Source of the DNA: an uncultured bacterium
GTDB lineage: Bacteria; Oederibacteriota; PGYV01; CAWJRG01
Assembly: GCA_963845185.1 (NCBI GenBank)
Contig: CAWJRG010000009.1
Coordinates: forward strand, 736,001-800,000
DNA length: 64,000 nt
Direction: 5' to 3'
The notes under the pieces are model-generated. The model did no database searches, had not been told where the DNA came from, and saw nothing but the letters and a program-made list of their open reading frames with translations. How positions within the stretch are numbered: the stretch's first letter is position 1; each line of letters starts with the position of its first letter. Positions 20,747 through 52,417 of this stretch are shown here, piece by piece. The position numbers and the translations under genes were made by a program.

Positions 20747-21062
20747 CTACTTCAGCACAATAAACACTCCCGGCTTGCTTTTTATTTTCCTGCCTGTGCT
20801 GTCTTCGGCTATAAGAATATAATAATACAATCCGCTGGCAAAGTTTCCCAGTTCGCCTTGAGAAAAGCTCACGTTATAATTCCCTGTTATAGAAGTGGCG
20901 GGCCACGTCTTGTCTTTTACCAGCCTGAAACCTGCCGTGTAAATTTTTATGCTCACTGATTGGGGCTGCTGAGTCATATCCATGTGCACGTAAAGCGCGT
21001 CTTTGCCCGCAATTGCGGGATTTGGATAAATAAGGACATTGTTTACTGTAAACCCAGTATTT
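20747..21062 (-). repeat. C-terminal sorting-domain DNA repeat, copy 1 of 3
   Basis: Long identical tracts shared with 32838-33140 and 37104-37405 (e.g. ggcttgcttttta, cagcctgaaa, tttggataaa, atatccatgtgcacgtaaagcg). Confidence 0.9.
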
Positions 21063-22318
21063 ACGGTCACGGTTTGTGTGCTGGTTGGCGAACATATTGG
21101 GGTCGCAGTTGATGTGGGTGTAATTGTCGGTGAAGGGCCTATTATTTCATAAAGATGAACGTCATATGCCTGGAAGCTGTCGGAAAACGAACCTCCTGTC
21201 AGTTGCACTTGCCTGCTTTCGCCAAGCACATTCACGCTGTTATCCGGGAGCGGTACAGTGAATGTCCCTGTCGTAGTGTTGCCTCTCATTGCCGCAGCAA
21301 ATATATAAGTAATGCCGCCTTTCTGTTTTACCATTGTGTCTATTGGCACCGTGGTATCACTTGAACTGTCAACCACAAGATTTTTGACTGTATTGGTATT
21401 TAAAACCGGCGCAAGCGCAAGTACCTGCTGGTTGATTGCGGAAACTGCAGCCAGCATCACAGGATCGTCCAGCAATGCCTGGTCGTCCTCTGTCGGATAA
21501 AAGCTATGGCAGAAATAACCAAAACCTGCTGCGCCGTGAATAAGCGCCATCCATACTTCGGACCTGACCTGGCTGGTTGTAGGCTTGGCAACTGAAGTAG
21601 AGTCAATAAGCGTGGTTTCTATCCAGCACCAGACCGGCTTTGTGTCGCCTGTCCAGCTTCTTAAATTGTCAATTCCCTGCGGCACGTACCATAACGGGTA
21701 ACCGCTATTTACCGGATAAATATCAAATGAAATAATATCTCCTCCCTGGCTGTATTGGGCGTACATTGCTGTGTCCCCTGTGCAGGTGCCGCGGCCGTAA
21801 TAGCCTGTATTTGAAGCGCCCTGGCCAAAGCCAAGGTAAACAGGCCTTGTAGGGTCATTTGCGGTCCATGTATTGTAATTCTGCACAATAATACTCGGGT
21901 CAATGCATGGAAGATACCCGCCGCTGCCGTCTGGCTGGGCATTATCAGGCTCATCCGGCTGTATCCAGCCCATTATGGTCTTGTTGGTTAGATTTGCCAG
22001 TCCTACAGCGTTCTGGTCGCAAAGAACAGGCATGCCTGCGGCTGCCAGCGTAGTAAGGTCGGTTTGAGCAGGACCGTTCCAGATGCCTATAAAAAGCGTG
22101 ATGCCTGCGTTTTTATAGCCAGTTGCTGTTGACGGGTCCTGCAGCCAGGCTGCGATTGGAAAATAATTTGGGTCAGATGGGATGCCATTGGACCATTTTG
22201 AGTAATATGCAGGGATATTATCCATAGAGTAAATTGGCATTATGAAAACCGCAAAAGCAGCAGCCATAAACGCCGCAGTTATAAATATCCTGCCTGAATT
22301 TTTTCTTATGGTTTTCAT
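20747..22318 (-). CDS. Secreted putative glycoside hydrolase with Pro/Thr linker and T9SS-like C-terminal domain
   Basis: Signal peptide; GWIQPDEPDN, SFDIYPV and WIET suggest a clan GH-A-like barrel; C-terminal NNVLIYPNP...SGLYYYIL...GVFIVLK; start uncertain. Confidence 0.75.
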   Translation of the reverse strand: MKTIRKNSGRIFITAAFMAAAFAVFIMPIYSMDNIPAYYSKWSNGIPSDPNYFPIAAWLQDPSTATGYKNAGITLFIGIWNGPAQTDLTTLAAAGMPVLCDQNAVGLANLTNKTIMGWIQPDEPDNAQPDGSGGYLPCIDPSIIVQNYNTWTANDPTRPVYLGFGQGASNTGYYGRGTCTGDTAMYAQYSQGGDIISFDIYPVNSGYPLWYVPQGIDNLRSWTGDTKPVWCWIETTLIDSTSVAKPTTSQVRSEVWMALIHGAAGFGYFCHSFYPTEDDQALLDDPVMLAAVSAINQQVLALAPVLNTNTVKNLVVDSSSDTTVPIDTMVKQKGGITYIFAAAMRGNTTTGTFTVPLPDNSVNVLGESRQVQLTGGSFSDSFQAYDVHLYEIIGPSPTITPTSTATPICSPTSTQTVTVNTGFTVNNVLIYPNPAIAGKDALYVHMDMTQQPQSVSIKIYTAGFRLVKDKTWPATSITGNYNVSFSQGELGNFASGLYYYILIAEDSTGRKIKSKPGVFIVLK

Positions 22319-22390
22319 GATTAATATCATCTCCACTAACATTTTTTACCACATAAAAAATCAGAGCACAGGATGTTATCTTGTCTTGCT

Positions 22391-25300
22391 TTACCTGCTC
22401 CACCCGACCGATACAGGCTCAACTTTTGCGGCATCGTTTACAGAGCCATCGTATGTATAAACAATCTTAGCATGGGGGTTGGTATTTATATAATTTTGGC
22501 TTTGCATGTATTGCGCGGCGGTCGGGAAATCGCCGGTAATGTAAAAATTTGTAAATTCTTTATTTCCGTTGCCGAAATACATGACATCATAATCATTATC
22601 CGTCACACCTTCTCCTGTTGGGTACCGTGGAAATGCGCCTGCTCCGCTGAGATGATAAGGCTCAAGATATATACGCACCATAGTGTCTTCGTGGGGCCTT
22701 AGTATGGGGCATGTCTGGCCTATTACCGGCGCAAATACATCGTAAATCGCCGTGTCATTTTTGGCATAGTCCAAAGTATAGCCGTTTAATCCGTACTCAA
22801 AATGATTAATGTAGTCAAGCGAGGTTGTAAGTGCCGCGTCAGAACCGACAGCATAAGGGTTGGGGCTGGTATAAAATATCCCTGCCAGCGGGTCATAGCT
22901 GTTGGCGTACATGTTATTGTAATTAAACTCAAATGTGACTTCCAGATCAAAAGTTCCTGCCACTGTATATTCGTTGGAGTCATTGGATAATTCTACGTCC
23001 ACATAAGCGGGCCTGTAGATATAATCAGGGTCGAGTTTTAAAAACGGGGCGCCTACAGGATTTGGCGCTCCACGGTTTGCCGAATTGACTATCTGCTGTG
23101 CAAGGCCCTTTGAACCCTGGACAACTTTGTTTACAGCGTCTTCAGTCATCTGGTCGGCAGGAACTCCTGCTTCTGTCATGGCTGTTTCAGCAATATAATC
23201 AATGCTCATGCTGGATAAGTCGTCAAAATTCGGTATTGACGGCGGCAGCCCAACCACAACCAGGCCGTAATTGACCATGCCTTCCAGTATGGTTTGGAAA
23301 GCACCTTTTAGCGAATCAATCGGGCACAGGTCAACAACAAAATTTATCAAATCGCTTTTTAAGTCAGAATAAGCAGCGCTTATTGTATCCACCAGTTGAT
23401 CCGCTATACTCCACAGGTCCTTAAAAAAGTCGACAACATCGTCCCAAAGTTCCTCATACCATGATTTGTTTTCAGGCACAGGCGGCGGGAAATATACTTT
23501 TGTCCCTATGTTCAGAACCTTTGGAATTTCTATCTGCTCATACTGCTGTTTGTTTGTGATACCAATGCTTTGATAATATACCATGGTGCCAATATCAGAG
23601 GTGTCATATGGATACAGAATTACCTGCGTATCCACGTTTTGATAGGAGCATGTTATTTCGTCGGCAGTTGGCATCCTGTAGACAATATAGTGGCTGAAGC
23701 TGTCCTGTGCCTGCCATTGTATTGGAGTGTAGGCTTTTATTTTTATAGTCGGCAGCGACTTGCCTATTATCTGCAATACCGGCGTAGGCGTGACATAAAA
23801 TGTAAAATTTGAAGTCCCATAACCGTATTGGATTATCACAGTATTGGTAATTTCCTCGTCAATATAACCGGGCATGCTTGAATTTTTTATTATAAGCCCG
23901 CGCGCGTAATATGTTATGTACTGGTTGTTTTGCATTTCAGAAACCTGCTTGGCGAAAGTGCCAAACGCGGCAAACAACGAGGACGGGTACTGGCCAATGG
24001 GAAAACCAGACGGCGCGCCTGACTTGTCCACGGGCAGATTCTGGACTTCCTCATACAGCAAACCGCTTGAGCCCGGCGTGTCATTATCCGTGGTAAATGG
24101 CTTGTCTGAAATCTGTAGCACTATCTCAGCTTCTGTGTTGTCTGCCCCGTGAAAATAAAATACCCTCGGGTCAGCGTTGTTGTGCGGATCCATAGAAATA
24201 CTGTCGCGCTTTGAGGGCGGGTCCTGGAACTCACCGTGATATTCTCCTAAATTGCTTCGGCCCGGCGTCCACAGCTCATATGTTGTGGATATTTTACCTG
24301 CTGAAGCCTGATTTACCAGTTGTTTGCCGTAGATTACCGCTATTCCTTTAGCCGGGTCTCCGATTGGTTTTCCCGTAGCGTCTACAGGCACTGCCCTTAC
24401 ATAATAGCATTTATGATTTTTTCTGAAGTGCTCAGGGGTTACAGTGCCTGTCTTTTTAAGAAGAGCGGTATTCACTATTGAAGTTTTCAAGATTAAAGGG
24501 TCAGAAAAATCCACTGAAAATTCTTTTGCTGTCGCAGGCACCTTGCCTGTTTTTAAGAGCCCTGCCGGATTTTTCCAGGTTTTTACACCGCCGCTGAACT
24601 GCACATCAGCGACCTGCCAAACAACATTTGCTGCCTTTGGGGCGTTTTTCAGGTTAAAGGTAAACCATTTCTTTTTATCGCCTTTTTCGTCGATAAAAGA
24701 TCCGAAAGTTGCGCTGGTATAAATTGATTTATTCACCGGTATTTTTATTATGGCAGGCTTTGGCAGAGATTTTGCCGTAGCTGTCGGGCCTCCGGGAGAA
24801 ATTATTTTTTCTACAGAAAGCGGCTTTTCCTCCGGCTTGCCGGCGCCTGCCGCGGCAAAAAGCTGAATGCGGGAATCATACTTTGGGAGAAAATAATTGT
24901 TATCCTTTGCGCCCTTGTAATATTTTGTCAATTCGCTGTCTTTTTTAAACTGCATTTTTTTATAGCGCAAAGTTTTCTTTCTGCCGGGAGGCGAAGCTTT
25001 TTTTGTTTGCTCGGAAGTATATACAACTATGCCTGCGCCGAAAAATGGCCCTGATATGTCCGCTGTTTTCTCATTGAACACTTTTTTGGGAATAGAATTA
25101 AATGTTTCGTTAAAAGGCGCCACATTAGGGTATTTGACGAGGAATTCCCCTTCCCTGTACCCTCCATAAAGTGACAATCCAAAAATGTCATTAAATAAGT
25201 ATTGAAGCCCCAGCTTCAGGTTGCCCCCAAAACTATAATCAGGCGAGTTGAAAAAATATTTTGAGCCTGAAAATTCCTTAAAGCTTATGCCAAGATCGGT

Positions 25301-25792
25301 AATTTCAGTCTGCCCGGCCGGGGTTTGGTTTGGGTAAATGTGATAGTACATCCCCATCTGGAAAAAAAATCCTGCGTCAGCGCCGGCAAATAAAGACAGG
25401 CCCGACGCTAGTTTGAGGTAATAATCCGCGCCAAACCCTGCGTAACCAGCCGGTATATTCAGATTGCTGTAGGCAAAATTCACATTGTCAGCCTGGTATG
25501 TGGTCTTCATTCCCGGGTTTAGATATGAACCTGTAAGCTTCAGGTCAAATGCATCGCATAAAAAATATTTAAGTGAAGCGGAGATATCATAAAGATTATT
25601 TTCATAACTCGGGGTTGCCTGTATTGGGTGCAAGACCGTCAGGTCTGCAATATAAGAAGTTGCAAAAGTATCGTTAAAATCCTTGGGGTTAATAAGACCT
25701 ATGCCGCCGTTGATTTCAAATCCGATTTTTGAATAGACAAGCGAAAAAAGGAAAACAAGAAATAAGGCTGCGATTAACAATTTTTTATTCAT
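22391..25792 (-). CDS. Large exported protein: N-terminal outer-membrane beta-barrel-like domain plus uncharacterised C-terminal region
   Basis: Signal peptide; amphipathic strands (GYAGFGADYY, FGGNLKLGLQY, SGPFFGAGIVVY); Lys-rich linker; acidic helical segment with GLPPSIPNFDDL. Confidence 0.7.
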   Translation of the reverse strand: MNKKLLIAALFLVFLFSLVYSKIGFEINGGIGLINPKDFNDTFATSYIADLTVLHPIQATPSYENNLYDISASLKYFLCDAFDLKLTGSYLNPGMKTTYQADNVNFAYSNLNIPAGYAGFGADYYLKLASGLSLFAGADAGFFFQMGMYYHIYPNQTPAGQTEITDLGISFKEFSGSKYFFNSPDYSFGGNLKLGLQYLFNDIFGLSLYGGYREGEFLVKYPNVAPFNETFNSIPKKVFNEKTADISGPFFGAGIVVYTSEQTKKASPPGRKKTLRYKKMQFKKDSELTKYYKGAKDNNYFLPKYDSRIQLFAAAGAGKPEEKPLSVEKIISPGGPTATAKSLPKPAIIKIPVNKSIYTSATFGSFIDEKGDKKKWFTFNLKNAPKAANVVWQVADVQFSGGVKTWKNPAGLLKTGKVPATAKEFSVDFSDPLILKTSIVNTALLKKTGTVTPEHFRKNHKCYYVRAVPVDATGKPIGDPAKGIAVIYGKQLVNQASAGKISTTYELWTPGRSNLGEYHGEFQDPPSKRDSISMDPHNNADPRVFYFHGADNTEAEIVLQISDKPFTTDNDTPGSSGLLYEEVQNLPVDKSGAPSGFPIGQYPSSLFAAFGTFAKQVSEMQNNQYITYYARGLIIKNSSMPGYIDEEITNTVIIQYGYGTSNFTFYVTPTPVLQIIGKSLPTIKIKAYTPIQWQAQDSFSHYIVYRMPTADEITCSYQNVDTQVILYPYDTSDIGTMVYYQSIGITNKQQYEQIEIPKVLNIGTKVYFPPPVPENKSWYEELWDDVVDFFKDLWSIADQLVDTISAAYSDLKSDLINFVVDLCPIDSLKGAFQTILEGMVNYGLVVVGLPPSIPNFDDLSSMSIDYIAETAMTEAGVPADQMTEDAVNKVVQGSKGLAQQIVNSANRGAPNPVGAPFLKLDPDYIYRPAYVDVELSNDSNEYTVAGTFDLEVTFEFNYNNMYANSYDPLAGIFYTSPNPYAVGSDAALTTSLDYINHFEYGLNGYTLDYAKNDTAIYDVFAPVIGQTCPILRPHEDTMVRIYLEPYHLSGAGAFPRYPTGEGVTDNDYDVMYFGNGNKEFTNFYITGDFPTAAQYMQSQNYINTNPHAKIVYTYDGSVNDAAKVEPVSVGWSR

Positions 25793-27894: not shown

Positions 27895-27927
27895 AATAGT
27901 AAACCTCCTTAAGGTTATTGTTTTTAT

Positions 27928-28472: not shown

Positions 28473-29465
28473 TTATGGATGGAATTTTTCAATTCTGTCA
28501 TTCCCATTGTCCACAACATAAACGTTCCCAATGCTGTCCACTGTTATTCCGAAAGGATTATAAAAATATCCGTTGCCGTTCCCGGCATTTCCCCATTGCG
28601 TTAAATATGCCCCTGTACCTACAAATTCCTGGATTAAATTATTATTTGTGTCCGCAACATATACGTTCCCGCTGCTGTCTAATGCTATTCCCCATGGGCC
28701 GTTAAACAACCCGTTCCCTGCTCCGGAACTACCCCATTGCGTTATATATGCGCCTGCATTGCTGAATTTTTGAACCCTGTTATTCTGCGTGTCCGTGACA
28801 TAAACATTCCCGCTGCTGTCTACAGCCACTCCCCATGGCTTATTAAACAGCGACGGGCCGTTTCCGCTATTGCCCCATTGTATTAAATATGTGCCTGTAT
28901 TGCTGAATTTTTGGATGTTGTTGTTATTAAAATCTACGACAAACACATTCCCTGTAGCGTCTGCTGCTATTCCAACAGGCCAGTTAAACTGCCCATTGGT
29001 GCTTCCTTGAGAACCCCATTTTGTTATATATGCGCCTGTACTGCTGAATACCTGGACCCTGTAATTATATGTATCTGTAACATAAACGTTACCGGTGCTG
29101 TCCAATGCTATTCCTTCAGGGTTATTAAACTGCCCGTTGAGATTTCCCTGGCTGCCCCATTGCGCCATAAATGTCCCTGTCATGCTGAATTTTTGAACCC
29201 TGTTATTGTTTGTGTCGCAGACATATACATTACCGCCGTTGTCTACTGCTATTCCATACGGCGAAAGAAACTGGCCATTGCCAAAGCCCTGGCTGCCCCA
29301 TTGTGTTATGTACATTGCGGTCATGGTTGCTGTTTGATGCGCCTGGGCTGTTGCTGTAGCATTAGGGGCTGATGTATCTGCAGGTGAGGATTTATTGCAC
29401 CCTGAAACAACAGAAATAGTTATAAATAAAGCAAAAAGAAATAATGGGATTAAAAATTTTTTCAT
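28473..29465 (-). CDS. NHL-repeat six-bladed beta-propeller lipoprotein
   Basis: Lipobox VSGC; six 47-aa repeats QWG..G.GNG.F..P.GIA.DS.GNVYV.D..NNR.Q.F. Confidence 0.92.
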   Translation of the reverse strand: MKKFLIPLFLFALFITISVVSGCNKSSPADTSAPNATATAQAHQTATMTAMYITQWGSQGFGNGQFLSPYGIAVDNGGNVYVCDTNNNRVQKFSMTGTFMAQWGSQGNLNGQFNNPEGIALDSTGNVYVTDTYNYRVQVFSSTGAYITKWGSQGSTNGQFNWPVGIAADATGNVFVVDFNNNNIQKFSNTGTYLIQWGNSGNGPSLFNKPWGVAVDSSGNVYVTDTQNNRVQKFSNAGAYITQWGSSGAGNGLFNGPWGIALDSSGNVYVADTNNNLIQEFVGTGAYLTQWGNAGNGNGYFYNPFGITVDSIGNVYVVDNGNDRIEKFHP

Positions 29466-32837: not shown

Positions 32838-33140
32838 CTATCTCAATACAATAAACACGCCCGGCTTGCTTTTTAACTGCTTTCCCTTGTTGTCTTTTGC
32901 TGTCAAAATATAATAGTATATTCCTCTGGCGAGTTTTCCAAGTTCTCCTTCAGAGAAGCATACGGTATAACGGCCGGTTATGGCAGAAGCGGGCCATGTT
33001 TTGTCTTTTATCAGCCTGAAAGCTTCTGTATAAATTTTCACGCTTACTGATTGCGGCTGCTGTGTTAAATCCAGATTAAAATAAAGCACATCCTTGCCTG
33101 CTTTCATCGGGTTTGGATAAACAAGGACATTATTTATTGC
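32838..33140 (-). repeat. C-terminal sorting-domain DNA repeat, copy 2 of 3
   Basis: High identity to 20747-21062 and 37104-37405. Confidence 0.9.
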
Positions 33141-36984: not shown

Positions 36985-37103
36985 TCTTTTTAACCTCCTT
37001 TCTAGTTTTAATTATACATCTTCCTCTCTTCAAAATCAAATTTTATAATTCAGCCCCCAAAACCCCTATTTTTTAAATCAGCCTTACTAATCTATTCTAA
37101 AGC

Positions 37104-38918: not shown

Positions 38919-39026
38919 GCCTTCACCCCGCTTTAAGTATTCAGGACTTTTTCAAATAATCAAAATTCCCTGCTTCTTAAATAACTATTTTATCCCAAAA
39001 GCGCGGAACTTCAACAGAAAAGAATA

Positions 39027-42000
39027 TTAATGTACTACGAATATAGTGCCTGTTTTTAATATATTGTTGGAACCTGACTCAATCACATAATAATACACCC
39101 CGGACGATACCGGGCTGTTGAATAAATTCCTGCCTTTCCAGTAAACAACAGGCGTTTGTGACGTCATCGAAATTACCAGTTCCCCTGATATTGTATAAAT
39201 GGATATGTTCGCGCCGATTGGCAAGTTGACGATTTTTAGCGCCCCTTCAATTGCTTTGTTGGGATTATAGGGATTGGGATAAACAATAATATCACCGATT
39301 GGATAAGGAGTAGTTGTTGCCGTAATTGTAGGCGTCAGTGTCGCTAGCACTTGCGTCAATGTCGATGTCACTGTTCTTGTAACTGTATATGTCAGCGTTA
39401 GCGTCGGCGTTAATGAAGCAGTAGGTGTAAAGGTTGATGTAGCAGTTATGGTTGGTGTAATTGAAGGCGTTGCCGACAAAGTCGGCGTGGGGCTTGCGCA
39501 CGCGCCGAATTCCTGGATTCTGTTATTATTTGTGTCCGCAACATACACATTACCACTGCTGGATACTGCTATCCCAGAAGGACCGTTAAACTGCCCGTTG
39601 CCGCTTCCACCGCTGCCCCAGCGTGTTATGTATGTTCCTGTACTGCTGAATTCATCGATTCTGTTACTATTCCATTCTGTGACATAAACATTTCCGCTGC
39701 TGTCTATTGCTGCGTCTTGAGTAATGGAAAATTGCCCGGGATTAGTGCCTTCACTGCCCAACCGGGTGATGTATGTGCCTATACTGTTAAACTCCTGAAC
39801 TCTGTAATTCCCATAATCCGTAACATACACGTTGCCGCTGCTGTCTATTGCTATTCCGTCAGGGCCGCTAAACTGCCCGTTACCGCTTCCTGCTGTACCC
39901 CATTGTGTGATATATGTGCCTGTATTGTTGAATTCTTCTATTCTATTATTAACATAGTCAGCAACATACACGTCTCCACTGCCGTCCACAGCCACCCCTT
40001 GAGGGTCATTAAACTGCCCGTTACCGCTTCCGGCAGTGCCCCATTGTGTGATATATGCCCCTGTATTATTAAATACTTCTATTCTGTCATTAACCAGGTC
40101 TGAAACATATACGTTCCCGCTGCTGTCTACTGCTACTCCAACAGGGCCGTCAAACTGCCCGTTACCGCTTCCAGTGCCACCCCATTGAGTTATATATGTC
40201 CCTGTACTGCTGAATTTTTCTATTCTATTATTACCTTCGTCTGCAACATACACGTTTCCGCTGCTGTCTATTGCTAAGAAAGCAGGATACTTGAACTGCC
40301 CGTTACCGCTTCCACTGCTGCCCCATGCCGTGATAAAACAGGGCGTCGGCCCGGATGTTAAAGTGGCAGTATATGTCAGCGTAATCGTGAAAGTGTTTGT
40401 AGGCGACAATATGGGTGTTGAAGTGCATGTCTGTGTCTGCGTAAGCGTCAAAGACAAAGTCTGCGTTGGGCTTACGCACGCGCCGAATTCCTGGATGTTA
40501 TTATTGTCTGAGTCTGAAACATACACATCCCCGCTGCTGTTTACTGCCAATCCAAAAGGCCATTTAAACTGCCCGGGCCCGGTTCCGTAACTGCCCCACT
40601 GTGTTATATATGTGCCTGTACTGCTGAATTCCTGGATTCTTATATTGCTGACATCTGCAGCATAAACGTTTCCACTGCTGTCTATTGCTATTCCTGCAGG
40701 GCCATAATAAAACTGGCCTTCGCCGCTGCCATTGCTGCCCCACTGTGTTATATATGCTCCTGTACTGCTGAATTCCTGGATCCTGCTGTTATTCGGGTCT
40801 GAAATATACACATCCCCGCTGCTGTTTACTGCTATTCCCCACGGGCCTATGAACTGCCCGTTGCCGCTCCCATTACTGCCCCATTGTATTATATATGCTC
40901 CTGTGCTGCTGAATTCCTGTATCCTGTTATTTCCGTTGTCAACAACAAACACATTACCGCTGCTGTCTACTGCTATTCCAAAAGGGCTATTAAACTGGCC
41001 GTTGCCGGTTCCAGTAACTCCCCATTGTGTTATATATGTGCCTATGCTGCTGAATTCCTGAATCCTGTTGTTATTCGCGTCTGAAACATACACGTCTCCG
41101 CTGCTGTTTACTGCTACTGCAACCGGATAATTAAACTGGCCGTTGCTGGTTCCAGAAAATCCCCACTGTGTTATATATGTTCCTGTACTGCTGAATTCTT
41201 CAATTCTGTTATTATAGCTGTCTGCGACATACACGTTTCCGCTGCTTTCTGCTGCTGCTCCTTCAGGATTATTAAACTGGCTGTTGCCGTTTCCACTGCT
41301 GCCCCACACCGTGATAAAACAAGGCGTGGGCCCTGGAATTATGGTTGCGGTATAGGTTGGAGTTGTTGTCATCGTATTTGTTTGCGTAGCAGTTCCAGTT
41401 ATGGTTTTTGTTATTGAAGGCGATACTATTGGCGTCTGCGTATTTGGGGTAAATACTATCCAGCATGATATATTAACTTGTGGTGATAATACTATCGGGC
41501 ATATAGCAGAACTATCGGGCGATGATTCTACCTGGAATGTCGCAAAAAGCAAATGGCATTGTGTATTGGTTGGAGCAGTCGCGCCAGGTCCTCCATTGCT
41601 TTTGTCCCCGTATGTTACTATTATCTGGCCTGCGTTCGCAGTAAGGCCGCTGGCTTCAACTATTATTTCGTTTCCGCTTACGCTTGAGCCTACTAGAACC
41701 CCGCCAGTGACAGTTATTGAAAAATATCCGGGGTCAGTAGCTGTTGTGCTCGGCGGGCTCCAAACAGGAGGGATAGTTATTATTAAAGTTCCGTACCCGG
41801 TCCCCGTGGCCCACGCGATCGGGCCTGCGGTATAAGTAAAAATAAGCGTGTTTCCAGTGCTTCCAGAACGGACCAATGCCGGATTTACAGACGCACTTCC
41901 CTCACCGATACAAGACGTCGGCGTCACGCTAGGCGTATTGGTTATAGTCATGGTTGGCGTTATTGTCGGAGTTATTGAAAAAGTCGGCGTGGATGTAGGC

Positions 42001-43247
42001 GTTGTTGTCGGGCTGCATATCAGGCATTCTGTGAGTGTTATTGTAACAGTCGGGGTAATGGTCGGGGTATTGCAAGAACTCAAGCATGTTATTCCCTGTA
42101 CCTGGCGTATAACCTGATTGTGGTTGTCGCATATAAGCAAATTTCCAAAATTATCAATCCCTACTCCGGAAGGCCAGCTTAACTGCGCACTGACTGCCGG
42201 GCCGTTATCACCGCTATAACCTGCAGTGCCCGTAGTGTCTGCAATTGTGGTTATATTTCCATACGCATCCACTTTCCTTATACGGTTGTCATCCGCGGTT
42301 GCAATGAAAAATTCATTACTGCAACTTCCGATTACGCTAAGCGGGTACTCAAGACTTGCGGAAGACGCAGGCCCTCCGTCGCCGAAATAAGCATCACTGC
42401 CGTTGCCTGCAAGGGTTGTAATTATACCTGTTACTGCGTCAACCCTGCAAACCCGGAAACCATTCATAGAAACTGGAAAATAAACATTATCACTGCCATC
42501 AACCCATACATCTTCTGTCCATCCAAGGGCTGTGTCAACTGCATCCCCGCCATCCCCGCTATATCCTGCACTACCATTGCCAGCCACGGTGTAGATTGTT
42601 CCGTCAGTATCAACCATGCGTATCCTGAGATTGTTGCGGTCGGCAATATACAATTGGCCCGAACAACTCATAAAAACCCCGTGAGGGTTCTGCAGTTCGG
42701 CTGAAATTGCCGGAATATCATCGCCGTTATACCCGCCAACATTAGGGATGCCAGCCACTGTTGATATAATGCCTGTAACGGCATCGACTTTGCGTACGCA
42801 ATGGTTTTGACAATCCGCAATATATAAATTGTTGTTGGCATCAAGGCACACACCAGTGGGCGTATATAGTTCCGCGGATACCGCAGGCCCGCCATCACCG
42901 CTATATCCTTGCGTTCCGTTACCTGCAACTGTTGTAATATTATTACTGCCTGCGATTATTTCCCTGATGCGGTTATTGTAGCTGTCGCTGAAATATATGT
43001 TATTTGCGCTGTCTACAGCAATGTAATACGGATAATAAAGTCTGGCTGATACAGCCGGACCGCCGTCACCGCTGTATCCCAGTGTGCCTGTGCCGGCTAT
43101 GGTCGTGATATCTCCGGTCGCAGCTGATAGGGTTGAAAATAATGCAAATAATAAAACAGTCAAATACGCAAGCTTATTTATTTTATAACGGCAATAAAAA
43201 AAATATGCCCCGCATTGAGTTTGTATTATATGCCCTTTTGGATTCAT
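39027..43247 (-). CDS. Large secreted protein with three NHL beta-propellers, Thr/Pro linkers and T9SS-like C-terminal domain
   Basis: N-terminal AGNG..GYSGDGGPA repeats, two further 6x47-aa NHL modules, IVYPNP...IYTISGELV...SGVYYY. Confidence 0.9.
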   Translation of the reverse strand: MNPKGHIIQTQCGAYFFYCRYKINKLAYLTVLLFALFSTLSAATGDITTIAGTGTLGYSGDGGPAVSARLYYPYYIAVDSANNIYFSDSYNNRIREIIAGSNNITTVAGNGTQGYSGDGGPAVSAELYTPTGVCLDANNNLYIADCQNHCVRKVDAVTGIISTVAGIPNVGGYNGDDIPAISAELQNPHGVFMSCSGQLYIADRNNLRIRMVDTDGTIYTVAGNGSAGYSGDGGDAVDTALGWTEDVWVDGSDNVYFPVSMNGFRVCRVDAVTGIITTLAGNGSDAYFGDGGPASSASLEYPLSVIGSCSNEFFIATADDNRIRKVDAYGNITTIADTTGTAGYSGDNGPAVSAQLSWPSGVGIDNFGNLLICDNHNQVIRQVQGITCLSSCNTPTITPTVTITLTECLICSPTTTPTSTPTFSITPTITPTMTITNTPSVTPTSCIGEGSASVNPALVRSGSTGNTLIFTYTAGPIAWATGTGYGTLIITIPPVWSPPSTTATDPGYFSITVTGGVLVGSSVSGNEIIVEASGLTANAGQIIVTYGDKSNGGPGATAPTNTQCHLLFATFQVESSPDSSAICPIVLSPQVNISCWIVFTPNTQTPIVSPSITKTITGTATQTNTMTTTPTYTATIIPGPTPCFITVWGSSGNGNSQFNNPEGAAAESSGNVYVADSYNNRIEEFSSTGTYITQWGFSGTSNGQFNYPVAVAVNSSGDVYVSDANNNRIQEFSSIGTYITQWGVTGTGNGQFNSPFGIAVDSSGNVFVVDNGNNRIQEFSSTGAYIIQWGSNGSGNGQFIGPWGIAVNSSGDVYISDPNNSRIQEFSSTGAYITQWGSNGSGEGQFYYGPAGIAIDSSGNVYAADVSNIRIQEFSSTGTYITQWGSYGTGPGQFKWPFGLAVNSSGDVYVSDSDNNNIQEFGACVSPTQTLSLTLTQTQTCTSTPILSPTNTFTITLTYTATLTSGPTPCFITAWGSSGSGNGQFKYPAFLAIDSSGNVYVADEGNNRIEKFSSTGTYITQWGGTGSGNGQFDGPVGVAVDSSGNVYVSDLVNDRIEVFNNTGAYITQWGTAGSGNGQFNDPQGVAVDGSGDVYVADYVNNRIEEFNNTGTYITQWGTAGSGNGQFSGPDGIAIDSSGNVYVTDYGNYRVQEFNSIGTYITRLGSEGTNPGQFSITQDAAIDSSGNVYVTEWNSNRIDEFSSTGTYITRWGSGGSGNGQFNGPSGIAVSSSGNVYVADTNNNRIQEFGACASPTPTLSATPSITPTITATSTFTPTASLTPTLTLTYTVTRTVTSTLTQVLATLTPTITATTTPYPIGDIIVYPNPYNPNKAIEGALKIVNLPIGANISIYTISGELVISMTSQTPVVYWKGRNLFNSPVSSGVYYYVIESGSNNILKTGTIFVVH
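39490..41335 (-). repeat. Tandem ~141-bp NHL repeats in two duplicated ~980-bp modules
   Basis: Recurrent gctgctgtctattgct, cctgtactgctgaatt and aactgcccgtt tracts; same unit as 28473-29320. Confidence 0.9.
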
Positions 43248-43425
43248 TTTTCTCCCTTAAATTAAGGAATCTTTCAAACTATAAATTCGATAAATTAGAC
43301 AATAATTTCATGCCATAGTTCCGGTACCTTTTGGATTATTTTATCACACGGAGGGTTTCAACAGGTAAAAAAAGATTTAATTTTATTGTGGATTTTAACC
43401 ATTGATTTTAAAAATGTATGTAATA

Positions 43426-44313
43426 TTAATATGCCCGGCTCACAAAAAATCCTGCGAGTTGAGTTAGTTGTTTTGTGTCTTTTTTTGCTTTGGCGAGTAT
43501 TTTTACTGCTTCAGATACCAGTTTTTCTGCAAGCACGCGCGACTTGGCAATGCCATATAATTGCGGATAAGTAACCTTGCCTGCTTTTGCGTCCTTTTTA
43601 GTCTTCTTTCCCAGCTCTTTTTCATCGCCAGCAACATCGAGGATGTCATCAGCTATCTGAAACGCGAGGCCTATTTTATCGCCGAACTCCCTGAAAAACC
43701 CTGATATTTTTCTGTTTGCTCCTGCCAGTATGACGCCAGCCATAATTGACGCCGTAATTAGCGCGCCTGTTTTATGCGAATGAAGGTAATTTAATGTTTT
43801 TTTGGATACATTTTTGTTCTCGCTGGTTATATCGACAACCTGCCCGCCTATCATGCCAACGGCGCCGGCGGCTTTTGCTATTTCAGAAGCTGCCTTTATT
43901 ATGTTTTCCTTTTTTATTTTTTTATTTTCAGCAGCAGACATCATCAGCTCAAATGCTTTTGTAAGAAGCGCGTCACCGCTGAGTATTGCCACTGCTTCGT
44001 TGAATTTTTTATGTGAAGTGAGCTTCCCCCTGCGGAAATCATCATTGTCCATTGCGGGCAAATCGTCATGGATGAGCGAATACGTATGAATCATCTCAAT
44101 CGCAGCGGCAAAAGGCATGGCATCCCCGTATTTAAGGCCGCATGCTTTTGCAGAAAGCAGGCAAAGTGCGGGCCTTATCCGCTTGCCGCCCGCAAAAAGG
44201 CTGTAGCGCATGGCCCTGTAGATTATGGCCGGATATGCGGCCTTTGGCAGGCTTTTATCAAGCGCCCGGTTTACCTGCTTTGCCAGTTTTTCAAGCATTA
44301 ATTCCGTTTCCAA
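43426..44313 (-). CDS. ispA: Farnesyl/geranylgeranyl diphosphate synthase
   Basis: GGKRIRP, SLIHDDLPAMD, KTG, FQIADDILD. Confidence 0.95.
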   Translation of the reverse strand: METELMLEKLAKQVNRALDKSLPKAAYPAIIYRAMRYSLFAGGKRIRPALCLLSAKACGLKYGDAMPFAAAIEMIHTYSLIHDDLPAMDNDDFRRGKLTSHKKFNEAVAILSGDALLTKAFELMMSAAENKKIKKENIIKAASEIAKAAGAVGMIGGQVVDITSENKNVSKKTLNYLHSHKTGALITASIMAGVILAGANRKISGFFREFGDKIGLAFQIADDILDVAGDEKELGKKTKKDAKAGKVTYPQLYGIAKSRVLAEKLVSEAVKILAKAKKDTKQLTQLAGFFVSRAY

Positions 44314-44330
44314 ATTGTTTCCCCTTTGGT

Positions 44331-44636
44331 TTAAAAAGGCAACTCGCTATCGTCTTCTTTTTCGGTCTTTTCTTCAGGGTCTTCTTCTTTATCTTTCCCG
44401 CTGCCTTCCGGCTCAAACGGCTCTGTCTCAAGGCCGCCCTTAACTTTTTTTTTCAAAACATCGATTTTTAGTTTGGTTTCTTTCAGGATTTCCCTACATT
44501 TTCCTACCAAAGCCATGCCTTTTTCATAGTCGCTAATGGCGTCTTCCAAATCAATCTCGCCTGATTCCAGTTTTTCGACTATGCTTTCGAGTTCTTTTAA
44601 ATAAGACTCAAAATTCTTTCCTTTTTCTTTTTTCAT
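44331..44636 (-). CDS. xseB: Exodeoxyribonuclease VII small subunit
   Basis: FE..L.ELE.IV.KLESG.I.LE.AI..YE.G; acidic tail; lies between xseA and ispA. Confidence 0.93.
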
Positions 44637-44637
44637 T

Positions 44638-45845
44638 TTATTCCACCTCTTTTTCAATTACCGTGGCTTTTAAAGCGCCTTTAAACAATCTGGCCTTAAT
44701 TTTTTCCCGGGTTTTACCTGTCTGGAATCTTTTAATATTGATTTGTCTTCATTGTAAACGACAGCATAACCCTTTTTCAGGATATTCAGTGGATTGAGTA
44801 TTGCCAGTTTCTCTTTTAATGTTTTTATGGTGTCCCCGGTAAATTTTATTTTATCCGCAATAAGCCTGTCAAAGTCCATTCCCACATCATCCAGTTTCTG
44901 CACGTACTCGTTATATAAATCAAAAGGCATTTTAAAAGCATGGCTTTTAGCAAGGCCCTGCAGTTTTTCCTCATATCGCAGGACTATATTATCAAGAGTA
45001 TTTTCCAGCCTTTTCCTGTAAGAGACTATATTTTCATAAAGTTCATGTGAATCCGGTACAACAAGCTCGGCAGCTGCCGAAGGCGTAGGCGCGCGCATGT
45101 CAGCCACAAAATCAGCTATTGTGAAGTCTATCTGGTGGCCTATGGCTGAAATTACAGGTATTTTGGATTCGTAAATGGCATAAGCAAGCTTTTCGTCGTT
45201 AAATGCCCATAAATCCTCAATAGAACCGCCGCCACGGGCCAGTATTATAATGTCAGCAGCGCTTATTTCGTTCATATCCTTAAGCGCGCCTATTATCTGT
45301 TCAGGCGCTTCCTCTCCCTGCACAAGCACCGGATATATGAGTATTTCCACGTTCCTGTAACGCCTGTCAATTATGTTTAAAATGTCCCTTAAAGCAGCAC
45401 CGGTTTGGCTGGTTATAATGCCTATTTTGTCCGGGAAAGCCGGTATTGGCTTTTTATGTTCATCCAAGAATAAGCCTTCAGATTCAAGTTTCTTTTTAAG
45501 CTTTTCGAACTGGACTAAAAGGTCGCCAATGCCCAATAGCTCTATTTCTTCAGCTATTATCTGGTATTCGCTTCTTTGGCCGTATATTGACAATTGGCCA
45601 AATATCTTGATTTTTTGGCCCTCTTTGAGTTCAAATCCTAGTTTTCTATGGCTAGCCCTAAAAAAGGCTATTTTTACCTGGTTATATTCGTCTTTAAGGG
45701 TAAAATAAACATGGCCTGAACCTGGTATTCTCAGATTTGATATTTCACCTTGAATCCAGATAATGCCTACATTATCCTCCAGTAACCCTTTAATTATTGT
45801 TGTTATTTCCGAAACAGAATAGATTTTTCCGTTTTCTTTTAGCAT
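44638..45845 (-). CDS. xseA: Exodeoxyribonuclease VII large subunit (apparent frameshift near 44700-44711)
   Basis: [45 protein letters not shown]. One added base gives the C-terminus [23 protein letters not shown], stopping just before the xseB ATG. Confidence 0.93.
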
Positions 45846-45903
45846 TGCTTTAGCCTTCTTCTTTGTCCGGACATAAGGTAGGAACCTCGTCAAAAGCTAT
45901 GTA

Positions 45904-46890
45904 TTATAACTTTCTCAAATATTCAGCACTTTCTTCAGGCAAAGTATTATTAATATAAAACCCGCTACCCCACTCAAAACCTGCAGAACTCTTAATTCTG
46001 GGTAATATCTCCATATGCCAGTGAAAATGGTCGAGATTAGCCGATTTTAGGGGTGCTGTATGTATCATATAGTTATAGGCAGGGTAATTTAGGGCCTTAT
46101 TAAGCCTGAAAATAGCGTCTTTCAGAATATAAGCCAGGTCATTTGATTCCTTATCGTCAATGTCTAAAAAATGGCTTTTATGCTGCTTTGGCAATATGCA
46201 CATTTCAAACGGCGACCTTGACGCAAAAGGCGTTATACAAAGGAAGTATTCAGACTCTTTTACCACACGGTCTTTCATCTGAATTTCGCTGTCTATAATG
46301 TCACAGTAAACGCACCGTTTTTTAAAATCGTAATATTGCTTTGCCGAATCGATTTTCTCAATAATCCTTTTCGGTATGACGGGCAATGCCATAAGCTGGG
46401 AATGCAGATGGGTCAGGTGCCCGCCTGCCCTTGCTCCCCTGTTTTTAAATATAAATATGTATTCAAGCCTGGTGTCGTTTTTCAGGTCAATAAACCTGGA
46501 TTTGTAGGTTTTAATAACGTCGTTTATCTGGCTGGGTTCAAGCTTATCCATGTCAACATTATGCAAAGGAGTCTCAATAATGACTTCGTTTGCGCCTGTG
46601 CCGGATATCACGTCAAATATCCCTAAACCTTTTTTGGTCAGGGGTGTTTCCACTTTTAAATACGGGTTGTTATTCGGGATGACGCGGATTTTCCATTTGT
46701 TTTCCTTGTCCTTTATTTCAGAAATGGAAAAGGTTGTTTTCCCTTCATTACCCGGGCAAAATGGGCATGATACATCCTGTTCAGGCAGGTTGTTTTTTGA
46801 AAATTCAGAATCTGTCAGGGGTACAAAATTTTTATCGTCTAAAGTTATTACCCATCTGTTTATTACAGGGTCTTTCCTGAGTTCGGACAT
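45904..46890 (-). CDS. galT: Galactose-1-phosphate uridylyltransferase-like protein (GalT/HIT family)
   Basis: MSELRKDP, CPFCPGNE, EVIIETP.H, HLHSQ, HWHMEILPR, AGFEWGSG. Confidence 0.85.
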   Translation of the reverse strand: MSELRKDPVINRWVITLDDKNFVPLTDSEFSKNNLPEQDVSCPFCPGNEGKTTFSISEIKDKENKWKIRVIPNNNPYLKVETPLTKKGLGIFDVISGTGANEVIIETPLHNVDMDKLEPSQINDVIKTYKSRFIDLKNDTRLEYIFIFKNRGARAGGHLTHLHSQLMALPVIPKRIIEKIDSAKQYYDFKKRCVYCDIIDSEIQMKDRVVKESEYFLCITPFASRSPFEMCILPKQHKSHFLDIDDKESNDLAYILKDAIFRLNKALNYPAYNYMIHTAPLKSANLDHFHWHMEILPRIKSSAGFEWGSGFYINNTLPEESAEYLRKL

Positions 46891-47265
46891 TTATTTCTTT
46901 TCTTCTGGCTGTTGGTCTGCCAGCTTATCAACCCTTGAAGCCACATGGGACCTTTTCATGTTTAAAAGCGTGCTTTCCCCGCTTTTAATCCTGATGATAT
47001 CCTCGGATTCCACAATTTTATCAATTATGCCGACTATTCCTCCGCTTGTTATTATCTTATCCCCGGGTTTCAAAGTCTTTAGCATTTCCTGATGTTTCTT
47101 CTGCTCTTTCCTCTGCGGTACGATAAACATGAAATAGAACAAAACAAAAATCAGTATTAAGGGCAAAAACGACATAAACATAGAAGCCGGGTCCGACGGC
47201 CCTGAAGCAGGTGCGCCGGCTGCAGGCGCTGCTGCTGCGGCATAAAGATTTTCTTCGAATAACAT
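46891..47265 (-). CDS. yajC: Preprotein translocase subunit YajC
   Basis: FYFMFIVPQRK, LKPGDKIITSGGIVG; follows tgt. Confidence 0.95.
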   Translation of the reverse strand: MLFEENLYAAAAAPAAGAPASGPSDPASMFMSFLPLILIFVLFYFMFIVPQRKEQKKHQEMLKTLKPGDKIITSGGIVGIIDKIVESEDIIRIKSGESTLLNMKRSHVASRVDKLADQQPEEKK

Positions 47266-47298
47266 GGTTAAACCTCCTGGTTTAAATTTTCATTGTTA

Positions 47299-47320
47299 TC
47301 TCCCCGCCTTTTGGGGGAGA
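47299..47320. other. GC-rich hairpin between tgt and yajC
   Basis: TCTCCCC...GGGGAGA stem without a clear U-tract. Confidence 0.4.
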
Positions 47321-47335
47321 GAGTATTCGCTGATA

Positions 47336-49505
<2,170 letters not shown>

Positions 49506-49603
49506 TTTTTCTCCTTTTTTAATTCCTATATGCGAAATTATAATTGTTTTATTGTGATGCTGCCGTTTGAACTTTTTTTTGTTTATTTATGCACCTGTGT
49601 TTT

Positions 49604-50395
49604 TTATGGCTGTTTCTGATTAAACCCCATACTCTGCGATATTTTTTCAGCAGTTGCTTTTACCTGTTTTGCGTATTCAGGTGTCTTCTGGTCATTCATC
49701 CTCAGAGCCGGCGCTGTTATGCCTACGCATGCGATAACCCTGCCTCTGTAATTTTTCACCGGCGCGGCTATCCCTACAAGGTCGTTTGAATACTCCTGAT
49801 TGTCTACGGCATAACCCTGCTGTTTTGCTTCGTTTATTGCTTCTTTCAACTTTTCAGCAGTGTCTATTGTGTAAGGAGTGAATGGTTCAAACTTGATAAA
49901 TTTCATTACCTCATCTAGCCTGTCATCAGGCAAATTGGCCAGCCAGATTTTTCCGGATGCCGAACAGTGAAGCGGAACTCTTTCGCCGACGTTTGACTTG
50001 ACCCCTACCTTTTCAAGCGTTTCGAGTACATCCACATAAAGCACTTTGTTCTGATCCACTATCGCGAGCTGCACAGTCTCGCCAGAGGACCTCCAGAGCT
50101 GCCTTAAATAGGGCATGGCGTGCTGCCTGATATCAAGCTTTGACAGTACGGCATTGCCGAGTTCAAATAACTTCATGCCAAGACGGTATTTTGAAGTTTC
50201 AATATCCTGCTCAACATATTTCCTGAGCATTAAAGTGGTCAAGAGCCTGTGTACCGTGCTTTTATGCAGGTGAAGCTCCTTGCTCAGTGTCGTAACGCCT
50301 ACTCCTGTCTTGTATTCGCTTAAACTTTCAACTATATCGAGAGTCCTTTCTACTGATTGTACCGTGGTTTCATATACCTGTTTTCTTCTCATCAT
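49604..50395 (-). CDS. IclR family transcriptional regulator
   Basis: VQSVER.L.I, LHKSTVHRLL, PLHCSASGK, IAAPV. Confidence 0.95.
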   Translation of the reverse strand: MMRRKQVYETTVQSVERTLDIVESLSEYKTGVGVTTLSKELHLHKSTVHRLLTTLMLRKYVEQDIETSKYRLGMKLFELGNAVLSKLDIRQHAMPYLRQLWRSSGETVQLAIVDQNKVLYVDVLETLEKVGVKSNVGERVPLHCSASGKIWLANLPDDRLDEVMKFIKFEPFTPYTIDTAEKLKEAINEAKQQGYAVDNQEYSNDLVGIAAPVKNYRGRVIACVGITAPALRMNDQKTPEYAKQVKATAEKISQSMGFNQKQP

Positions 50396-50482
50396 TTCCT
50401 CCTGCTGTTTTTATTCCCCTGTTATTTATAATATGGGTTTTGGCCGTTATTATTTGTATAAACCGGCTGGCCTTTGCCGTAT

Positions 50483-52417
50483 TTATTTCCATTCGCTTGC
50501 TTTTATTCTTATCGTTACCCTCCTGTTTTTCTGCCTGCCCTCATCGGTATCATTTGAAGCAACAGGCATCGTATCCCCTTTCCCTATAGCAGTAAACATA
50601 TTTTCCTGCATTCCAAAAAGATCGACAAAAAATTTGACTACAGCCTCTGCCCTTGCCTGGGATAAAGCAAGGTTATTCGGGTATATGCTGCGTTTTATCG
50701 GCATATTATCAGTATGGCCTTCCACTATCACCGATGCGTTTTTATGGGTGTTTATCTGATCCGCTATCTTTTTTATGTCCTGATATACACTTATTTTAAC
50801 GTCTGCCTTGCCTGTATCAAATAAAGTATCTGCCGATAAAGTTATTACAATTTCCCTTAGTAACACATGAACGTACTGCGGCACGGTATGCGCCCAGTTA
50901 CCGACCGTATCAGCTGCATAAAAAGTATATGTATAAACTTTGCCCGGGTCAATATACGCGCCCTTGTCGTTTGTGCCATCCCACACAACAGGAGAAGGCG
51001 GATCCCCTGCTCCGCTGAATCTTTTTACCACCTTGCCTTTATCATCCCCTATAATCAATTGCCATGAGCCTATATTGTGCAAGTCTGTGGCTGTTGGTTT
51101 AAATGATACGGGTACAACAATGGCGCCTATTTGATTTGGTTTAAGTATTTTGGGCTCTGCATCTATACTAACTTTCGGTGGAGTGTTGTCAACCTCCACG
51201 CTTATCTCGTTTGAGTCTGATTTTGTCCCGTTTTTATAAATAGCCTGTGCTTTTATATTATAAACACCATCCGGTACAACTTTTCCTAAACTATTGTATC
51301 CGTTCCAGTATAATCTTTGGGATGCATCCTTAAATACAAGGCTTTTAATAGCAACGCCAACTGAATCGGAAATATTCAGGATTATTTGTTTTACCTTTGC
51401 GGGCGATGCAATATCAGGAACAATGAAAGTGAAATCCTTATATTTATCGCCATTGGGAGAAAATACAGCTGGATTTGCTGCTATATTAAAAGGCGGAGTG
51501 CCGAATTGATAAGTCAAAGTTATCCTGTTGGTTAAACCAAGGTCTGCATTATAAGGCACAAAAGCATAATCAATCAAAAGAGAGTTTAAAATCAATCCTG
51601 CCCCAAAAGTCGGTTGTTGGATAGTCCCTAATTTGTAACCAAGCCTGAAAGCTAAAACATTAAAGGCGGTATATGACGCGCCAAATGAATAATTAAGGTT
51701 ATTGTCCGAAGCTGCCTGCACATTACCTTCAAGTGTAAAATTATTTGCGCTGTAACCCAGTCCTATTTTCATATTTATTGGTTGGCTGAAAGCCTGTGAA
51801 ACAAAAGTTTCCTGCGGCCCTATGTCGTTAAAAACAAGCCCTGCTGACAAGCCGTTTAGAAACGGTAAATCATATATAAGTCCGAAGTCAAAAAGAAAGG
51901 AAAATGTGGAACCCGTTGCATTCTGGTTGTCAATTGTATAATTAAGTATTTTCAGGTTTGCGCCAAGAAATAGATCATCAAAAAATTGTTTAGAATAAGT
52001 TAATATTCCATAAACGCTGTAAGGAGAAAAAGTATAAAGCGATGTGTACAATGTTGTTGGGTTAGCAATAGTTTTTGTTAATGAATCCATATGAAGCCAA
52101 TTTATGGTGGCGGCAATTGTTCCAAAAGGAAAAATCATGGAGTATTCAATATTCTCGTATTCCACCTGTTGAAACCATTCAATGTGAGTTAACGAAATTT
52201 CTGATGATAGTGATTTTGAAAGGCCCGCTGGGTTATATTCTATTGAATCTATATCATTCGCTAGTGCAATATATGTTTCACCCAAACCGCTTGGCTTTGC
52301 AGGAACAAGGATTTTTAAAAAATTATTTGCAGTTGTGCCGATTTGTTCTGCAGAAGGAAATATATTTCCTTCTGTCAATAAAACAATGAAAAGTAAAAAT
52401 AATATTTTCTTTTTCAT
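50483..52417 (-). CDS. PorV/PorQ-like beta-barrel fused to FlgD-type Ig domains and an OmpA C-terminal domain
   Basis: FLKI...A...GLGE.Y.A.A.D...I.YNPAGL N-terminus, DYAFVPY..LG, FSPNGD, WNG/WDG, LFDTGKA, EGHTDN, LSQARA, NRRV. Confidence 0.85.
   Translation of the reverse strand: MKKKILFLLFIVLLTEGNIFPSAEQIGTTANNFLKILVPAKPSGLGETYIALANDIDSIEYNPAGLSKSLSSEISLTHIEWFQQVEYENIEYSMIFPFGTIAATINWLHMDSLTKTIANPTTLYTSLYTFSPYSVYGILTYSKQFFDDLFLGANLKILNYTIDNQNATGSTFSFLFDFGLIYDLPFLNGLSAGLVFNDIGPQETFVSQAFSQPINMKIGLGYSANNFTLEGNVQAASDNNLNYSFGASYTAFNVLAFRLGYKLGTIQQPTFGAGLILNSLLIDYAFVPYNADLGLTNRITLTYQFGTPPFNIAANPAVFSPNGDKYKDFTFIVPDIASPAKVKQIILNISDSVGVAIKSLVFKDASQRLYWNGYNSLGKVVPDGVYNIKAQAIYKNGTKSDSNEISVEVDNTPPKVSIDAEPKILKPNQIGAIVVPVSFKPTATDLHNIGSWQLIIGDDKGKVVKRFSGAGDPPSPVVWDGTNDKGAYIDPGKVYTYTFYAADTVGNWAHTVPQYVHVLLREIVITLSADTLFDTGKADVKISVYQDIKKIADQINTHKNASVIVEGHTDNMPIKRSIYPNNLALSQARAEAVVKFFVDLFGMQENMFTAIGKGDTMPVASNDTDEGRQKNRRVTIRIKASEWK

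Follow-up and report, generated by a model that had tools for sequence, protein, structure and literature searches.

The stretch of DNA analysed here, which we call the window, comes from an uncultured bacterium and is 64,000 nucleotides long (positions 736,001 to 800,000 of contig CAWJRG010000009.1, assembly GCA_963845185.1). Within it there are five open reading frames (ORFs), all on the minus strand, whose products share one architecture (Table 1). Each protein begins with a basic and hydrophobic segment that by eye resembles a signal peptide, followed by a middle section unrelated to those of the other four, a stretch rich in threonine and proline, and a tail of ~90-100 amino acids (aa). 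The best 30-residue segment of the Thr/Pro stretch contains 40-60% T+P, and the stretch is shortest in 32838. The motifs PNP, IYT..G and G.Y/F are present in all five tails. An earlier reading of the sequence (the original prediction) had proposed this layout, which we find as described with the signal part judged by eye, and had suggested that the tails direct the proteins to a route like Bacteroidota's type IX secretion system (T9SS). We consider it probable that the five genes encode cargo of a reduced system homologous to the T9SS, in which uncleaved cargo would be held on a barrel of the PorV family. The underlying observations are the tail, an SprA homologue, 37 barrel genes in the genome, pairing of cargo and barrel genes, and the lack of detectable GldL, GldM, GldN, PorU and PorZ.

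Table 1. Cargo genes and domains of the PorV-family barrel protein in the window (positions are those of the window).
Feature	Position	Strand	Description
Cargo, 531 aa	20747..22342	-	Signal-like N-terminus, GH42-like domain (lead only), Thr/Pro linker, tail ~20750-21049
Cargo, 664 aa	32838..34832	-	Probable beta-helix (by eye), short Thr/Pro linker, tail ~32841-33140
Cargo, 708 aa	34805..36931	-	PQQ-like propeller, DUF11, Thr/Pro linker, tail 34808-35098
Cargo, 604 aa	37104..38918	-	Right-handed beta-helix (PF13229 E 7e-7), long Thr/Pro linker, tail ~37107-37406
Cargo, 1406 aa	39027..43247	-	NHL/teneurin-like propellers split by Thr/Pro linkers, tail ~39030-39302
PorV-family outer-membrane barrel domain, aa 22-306	51500..52354	-	NF033709 127.6 bits; family profile to PorV 6H3I_F E 3e-36
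Two FlgD-like Ig spacer domains behind barrel	50912..51493	-	PF13860, 2 stretches; internal, weakly tail-like, iE 2.8e-3
OmpA-like C-terminal domain, predicted peptidoglycan-binding	50498..50854	-	PF00691 E 3e-20

The suggestion that the cargo is glycan-active holds only in part. There is the lead for 20747 (Atlas 0.96-0.97, with PF02449 on 13% of one cluster), and there are the two beta-helix proteins, but 34805 and 39027 are propellers. A weak match of 32838 to choice-of-anchor Q (NF041518, E 0.002) lies below the cut-off, and searching the cargo of 20747, 32838 and 37104 against the PDB with phmmer gave no match. Cargo elsewhere in the genome includes S8 and C25 peptidases.

The C-terminal tail

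A hidden Markov model (HMM) was built from the five tails, as had been proposed, and in the first round it matched 129 of the 2773 genes of the genome, always no more than 20 aa from the C-terminus. It matched none of the reversed proteins. On iteration the model converged with 155 C-terminal matches in 160 proteins, and tailed genes make up ~14% of the genome. Models of four tails recovered the fifth with E values of 2e-35, 1e-36, 1.5e-7, 5e-36 and 1.5e-4; the five belong to three subfamilies, three of them being near relatives. A lysine lies at positions -9 to -5 in 118 of 157 tailed proteins, and 114 of the 157 have a hydrophobic N-terminal stretch, compared with 1264 of all 2773 genes by this purely heuristic measure.

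When the whole window proteins were compared with TIGR04183, one of the five scored above the cut-off (23.2 bits), one reached 21.6 bits and three gave no match. The tail of 34805 taken alone scores 29.6 bits (cut-off 23), and that of 39027, just below the cut-off at 21.6 bits, matches the PorZ tail with E 3e-12. Among 82 aligned tails, 73 match TIGR04183 (type A) and three match TIGR04131 (type B) at E<=0.01. The tail profile ranks the PorU sorting domain first (E 5.6e-9), FlgD next (E 1.5e-8) and then PorZ. An AF2 model of the 34805 tail is a seven-strand sandwich (pLDDT 95.9) whose closest solved relative is again the PorU sorting domain, with TM 0.83-0.84 compared with 0.62-0.70 for FlgD Ig domains. 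The sorting domains of PorU and PorZ are described in PMC11285876 as the non-cleaved form. Sequence comparison and the predicted fold support the assignment of the tail as a type A-like T9SS sorting domain. The resemblance had been pointed out originally; the scan now places PorU first, but FlgD is a close second.

The rank of FlgD gives rise to a different explanation, whereby proteins would be exported by some other route and the tail, a FlgD-like Ig module, would then bind barrels or the wall, with SprA serving only a few proteins. Barrel extensions do contain similar Ig domains, some tails are preceded by tandem ones, and one tailed protein (G000:C10:234130-235119, where G000 is the present genome) looks like a membrane anti-sigma factor. 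Against this stand the strict C-terminal position of the tail and the lysine near its end, the fact that almost all genomes have one SprA homologue, often with a tailed FN3 protein behind it, and predicted contacts on the long loops of the barrel opposite its OmpA extension (both described below). We regard such a module as very unlikely.

Large cargo proteins with tandem weaker Ig copies before the final tail are encoded at G000:C1:58259-69323, C5:287055-318888 and C6:13691-23637. The anti-sigma-factor-like protein (by eye) has 329 aa with the export tail at its end, and its gene is followed by that of a PorV barrel.

SprA, PorV-family barrels and the host

Judged from MutS encoded in the window (one marker, no tree), the host is Candidatus Goldbacteria, outside Bacteroidota and the Fibrobacteres-Chlorobi-Bacteroidetes (FCB) group. 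Proteins named Ca. Goldbacteria or Goldiibacteriota share 60-64% identity with this MutS and those of Firestonebacteria 50-53%, with no Bacteroidota name among the best 120 matches. This agrees with the earlier impression that the host does not look like a member of Bacteroidota. The families of the tail, PorV and SprA were named from Bacteroidota, as would be expected if host or contig were Bacteroidota/FCB with an ordinary T9SS, but the placement of MutS, a contamination of 1.7% in a genome that is 99.4% complete (2773 genes), and the presence of the parts throughout the phylum make that barely credible. Shine-Dalgarno sites and TTGACA/TATAAT promoters had both been called common. Shine-Dalgarno-like motifs are enriched (1185 of 2311 genes, versus 251 in the coding control), but sigma-70-type sites are not above chance, with 54 in 36000-54000 compared with 47.9 +/- 6.7 in shuffled sequence. 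Two promoter-like sites matching at 10 of 12 positions lie just upstream of the barrel gene at 50483-52417.

Pfam and NCBIfam scans of the 64 kb found no sprA, porK-N or porU, as the original prediction had it. Elsewhere in the genome, on the evidence of sequence comparison, there is a homologue of the SprA/Sov translocon. This is a 2145-aa ORF (G000:C9:181574-188011) that matches TIGR04189 in four collinear segments with 183.7 bits, just below the cut-off of 200. A profile of 49 such homologues finds only Flavobacterium johnsoniae SprA (6H3I) in the PDB, with E 2.5e-102. Because of this true SprA homologue, the pathway is homologous to the T9SS and not merely analogous, as had been allowed. 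Among 61 genomes of the phylum, 58 have a strong SprA match, two have C-terminal fragments and one has only FN3 among the matches listed. Relatives occur in records titled Goldiibacteriota, FCPU426, Firestonebacteria, Elusimicrobiota and Spirochaetia, and named homologues are mostly annotated as hypothetical. The SprA homologue begins with FN3 domains, and directly behind its gene lies one for a tailed FN3-rich protein (G000:C9:188047-191457), an arrangement found in many of 71 sprA loci. The FN3-rich protein might serve as an accessory subunit of the pore or as its plug.

The PorV-family model (NF033709) has 40 matches in the genome, 30 of them above the cut-off. These correspond to 38 ORFs and 37 genes, two ORFs being pieces of one frameshifted gene. 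Candidates are present in all 61 genomes of the phylum, with 11-68 in each. A tailed gene lies directly upstream on the same strand for 25 of the 38 barrel ORFs, compared with 108 of 2736 other genes (P 3e-25). In relatives a tail ends no more than 450 bases upstream of 24 of 60 barrels (the plus-strand matches among the best 150 listed), the corresponding figure for genes near sprA being 39 of 672. The P values for pairing are overstated, given that related genomes are not independent of one another. Co-occurrence of tails with PorV-like barrels, proposed at the outset, is thus far beyond chance both here and in relatives. Both outcomes that had been named at first as counting against the idea are contradicted: the host is not FCB, and the tail is C-terminal in all 129 first-round matches and accompanies PorV-family barrels.

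Tail and barrel have matching nearest neighbours in 12 of 25 pairs, where 1.06 would be expected, and in six of 19 with close duplicates left out (P 0.003). Pairs thus duplicate jointly; this is not evidence of specific binding. Deep co-evolution of tail and barrel was considered and rejected, since overall tail and barrel distances are uncorrelated (Mantel rho 0.07, P 0.2), though the nearest-neighbour agreement is significant. The C-terminal extensions of the barrels vary by eye between none, TPR-like, FN3-like, Ig, and Ig plus OmpA-like; examples are G000 C11:33269-35059, C9:388824-390491 and C5:773336-775657.

The product of 50483-52417, proposed to be a barrel like PorV or PorQ, passes the NF033709 cut-off of 90 bits, but is more than a barrel. 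In this fusion the barrel is followed by two FlgD-like Ig domains and then an OmpA domain. Its gene, one of the 37, has no cargo gene next to it. Close homologues are found in 19 of 19 genomes of the same order and in 29 of 81 overall. In 17 of the 19 same-order loci the orthologue lies beside iclR, and no tailed gene was found in the 1.5-kb flanks. Of the three paralogues closest to the window barrel within the genome, two are encoded behind cargo whose tails belong to the 34805 subfamily. The window was considered as a single secretion locus and rejected as such, because its barrel is one of 37, an OmpA fusion kept beside iclR and not beside cargo; housekeeping genes lie between cargo and barrel, and sprA is ~550 kb away.

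Co-folding of the barrel with the 34805 tail, an experiment suggested originally, gave a score of 0.93, while the best of three controls scored 0.00. The runs share at least 96% of contacts and the partner pLDDT is at least 89. The mark is reached by 116 of 157 solved pairs and by two of 215 mismatched pairs. PorV-CTD (C-terminal domain) complexes have already been solved, and the pass therefore indicates likeness to them rather than binding. The predicted contacts involve the loop before the last strand, which faces outward by barrel topology, and the last strand of the tail with its lysine. They would place the tail on the long loops, facing away from the OmpA extension as judged from the same topology, and we predict on this model that the seven-strand fold docks there.

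Undetected components and the source of energy

The genome-wide search proposed originally yields a mixed result: an SprA homologue is present, but GldL, GldM, GldN and PorU are undetected and GldK is matched only partially. Even at E<=1 nothing in this genome matches GldM, GldN or GldL, and GldM and GldN are found in none of the 61 genomes of the phylum; in the searches for GldM, GldN, GldL and GldK none of 14 control genomes scored above the cut-off, so that these results mean 'not detected'. Five lipoproteins match GldK at positions 189-407 only, with at best 45 bits (cut-off 350) and among unrelated lipoproteins, and were rejected as GldK. Two C25 peptidases were rejected as PorU, scoring 65 bits or nothing against a cut-off of 420, and one of them has its own tail. 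All 48 matches to PorZ are confined to its tail, SprE/PorW finds only generic TPR proteins in the genome (best 59 bits, cut-off 250), and no match to the PorP/SprF barrel (PF11751) is above the cut-off. In the 71 sprA loci, whose neighbours were grouped by BLAST and read by eye, there is no recurrent motor-like gene up to 10 kb from sprA. A plasmid search with the SprA homologue, meant to supply a Bacteroidota control genome, gave no match.

It could be argued that the T9SS here is nearly canonical but that profiles no longer recognise its diverged motor, ring and sortase. SprA itself scores below its cut-off, the searches had no positive control above cut-off, and there are the partial GldK matches and the two C25 peptidases; the same caveat is raised in PMC7323717 for Bacteroidota that lack parts. 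Yet the three Gld proteins go unmatched even at E<=1 in a 99.4% complete genome, two of them in all 61 genomes of the phylum, and neither the GldK and C25 scores nor the neighbourhoods of sprA bear the idea out. We find it decidedly unlikely.

Four loci of ExbB/MotA type are present in the genome: one flagellar, one next to TonB-dependent receptors, and two with TPR proteins of ~1000 aa. The first of the latter is an operon of eight genes (G000:C9:130960-144893, plus strand) encoding a large tailed protein, a PorV+Ig barrel, a ~1040-aa TPR protein, ExbB, ExbD, ExbD, TonB and an Ig/OmpA-like protein. It contains no TonB-dependent receptor. Four of its genes are frameshifted here and whole in relatives, suggesting assembly errors. 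At 20 loci, picked by TPR match from 47 non-own matches, the order from TPR to Ig/OmpA is kept in 19 and the barrel is directly upstream in 18. The second module (G000:C10:530364-536958, minus strand) comprises a 996-aa TPR protein, a 567-aa barrel, ExbB, ExbD and TonB, and a related module (with a 520-615-aa barrel) was found in seven of seven other genomes examined. A different barrel-motor arrangement occurs in genome G004 (G004:C1:2700000-2713000), where three tailed genes and a PorV barrel are followed by ExbB-ExbD and an 882-aa gene.

These modules raise the possibility that the same route through SprA, PorV and tail is energised by an ExbB/ExbD/TonB motor, with the ~1000-aa TPR scaffold replacing GldLM and SprE. 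The first operon joins a tailed protein and a PorV barrel to TPR and Exb/TonB in the conserved order, its TPR protein provides the best SprE/PorW match of the genome (if only at the 59 bits given above), and a second module of similar composition exists here and in the other seven genomes. On the other side, the TPR query finds the PorV-linked operon in only 39 of 81 genomes, and in six SprA-bearing genomes it lies beside none of 19 ExbB matches, every match being examined; among the six, there is a barrel ahead of ExbB-ExbD in one (L225) and ahead of the second module in another (L240). The barrel of the second module is its own and comes from an unnamed family found most often in Bacteroidota; the module is not linked to sprA. 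The case for the PorV-linked operon as a universal motor is weakened by the counts of 39/81 and 0/19, and because of them it looks like a dedicated machine. We think it unlikely that such a motor drives the route.

In the reading we prefer, that of a reduced, homologous system, tailed proteins would be exported to the periplasm by Sec, and the tail would steer them into the outer-membrane pore of the SprA type. They would then be handed from SprA to a PorV-family barrel and kept uncleaved at the cell surface, without tail cleavage or attachment to lipopolysaccharide (LPS). Many cargo proteins would sit on the barrel encoded right behind them, and orphans such as the five of the window on unpaired barrels. 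The window barrel could be a shared anchor tethered to the wall, like PorP plus PorE in one chain. Of the two possibilities first raised, a reduced or an analogous pathway, we therefore favor a reduced and homologous one, with export and surface anchoring of the tailed proteins inferred. The means of release from SprA is a matter of preference. We lean towards barrels that act as single-use carrier-anchors and leave SprA without a dedicated motor; a Ton-type motor seems doubtful in this role, and an unrecognised motor a little more doubtful still. According to PMC10994853, loading into SprA needs no energy in Flavobacterium.

Several points weigh against the preferred reading. That release from SprA in Flavobacterium needs the motor together with SprE/SkpA (PMC10994853) speaks against a passive step. 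FlgD Ig domains resemble the tail almost as much as the PorU domain does, there are 25 weaker internal copies of a tail-like domain, and the overall distances of tails and barrels do not correlate. In the SprA homologue the final ~310 positions of the profile are not covered by the SprA match. The searches for missing parts had no positive control, and since even SprA falls below its cut-off, smaller components could be too divergent to be found; for PorU, only 10 candidates were scored in each genome of the phylum.

Relation to known systems and other genes of the window

The Bacteroidota T9SS (PDB 6H3I, 8GL6; PMC10994853 for the description) shares with the present system an SprA-type pore, PorV-family barrels, a seven-strand tag with a late lysine, a signal-like N-terminus, and a tail predicted to dock on the barrel loops. 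Here, however, the host is not FCB, the SprA homologue starts with FN3 domains, GldL, GldM, GldN, full GldK, SprE, PorU and PorZ are undetected, and there are 37 barrel genes where the Bacteroidota system has one PorV for all type A cargo. Membership of the canonical T9SS fails on motor, ring, attachment complex and host range, while pairing in the style of type B is present. In the type B CTD and PorP/SprF shuttles, as portrayed in PMC12618676 and PMC9143113, the barrel gene lies directly downstream of the cargo gene, orphan cargo occurs, and cargo is proposed to be barrel-bound, three points on which the present system resembles them. It differs from the shuttles in tails that are type A-like (73/82 against 3/82) and barrels of the PorV/PorQ family with PF11751 below cut-off, and the window barrel departs from the downstream pairing.

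For the window barrel the nearest parallel described is the PorP-PorE-PG1035 anchor of Porphyromonas gingivalis (PMC9143113), where a barrel and a periplasmic partner hold a tailed protein, PorE being reported in PMC12204202 to bind peptidoglycan. In the window protein barrel, Ig spacers and OmpA domain form one chain. The PorV-linked Ton operon resembles the Agl-Glt core complex of Myxococcus in the clustering of a Tol/Exb-type motor, a TonB-like transducer and envelope proteins. The likeness is one of description, and the account in PMC3169522 includes no PorV barrel or tailed protein.

PMC7323717 lists 'Incertae sedis' members of Bacteroidota with Sov and PorV and without PorK/L/M/N, and Sphingobacteriia without PorQ/U/Z whose cargo is proposed to stay on PorV. 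As motor-less and sortase-less sets are already noted there, each feature alone is less novel. Those sets lie inside FCB and lack one module each, whereas here both seem to be missing, in a separate phylum and with an expansion of barrels. A search of mostly open-access articles, whose supplements (outside its scope) may list T9SS genes of candidate phyla, brought up none that treats a T9SS of Goldbacteria, FCPU426, Firestonebacteria or Elusimicrobiota, and none in print on a motor-less type IX route outside the Bacteroidota group. T9SS genes are stated to be absent outside FCB in PMC11285876 (2024) and the system to be exclusive to Bacteroidota in PMC12618676 (2025). A phylum with SprA, dozens of PorV barrels and no detectable motor challenges these statements, as well as that in PMC10994853 that release needs the motor. 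It opens the questions of what constitutes a minimal translocon and whether type A-like tails can be cargo-specific, and may offer an export route for the cellulose-binding Goldbacteria of PMC7031533, a paper with no T9SS passage in its main text.

Tentatively, we propose that this whole non-FCB phylum has a T9SS of ancestral style made up of SprA, tails and dozens of PorV barrels and nothing else. Each barrel would be cargo-specific and serve once, as carrier and anchor; a GldLM motor, ring and sortase would be lacking, and the Ton motor would be a separate machine acting on one barrel-adhesin pair. If that is true, the GldKLMN energy chain would be an addition of Bacteroidota and not the core of type IX transport.

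Several other genes of the window deserve mention, all on the minus strand. Directly upstream of cargo gene 20747 lies that of a 1133-aa protein (22391-25792) without a Pfam or NCBIfam match, the first ~260 aa of which look by eye like an outer-membrane barrel. The iclR and GH5 genes at 48426-50395 follow the barrel gene in most genomes of the order, with IclR 76-83% conserved. Two adjacent TPR proteins with signal-like N-termini (5707-7591) are encoded beside two NlpC/P60 genes, and match CpoB/BamD-like families under or near the cut-off. The genes at 19971-20606 and 28473-29465 encode lipoprotein-like products with short Thr/Pro stalks, of which there are many alike genome-wide; one of these is an NHL propeller like cargo 39027.

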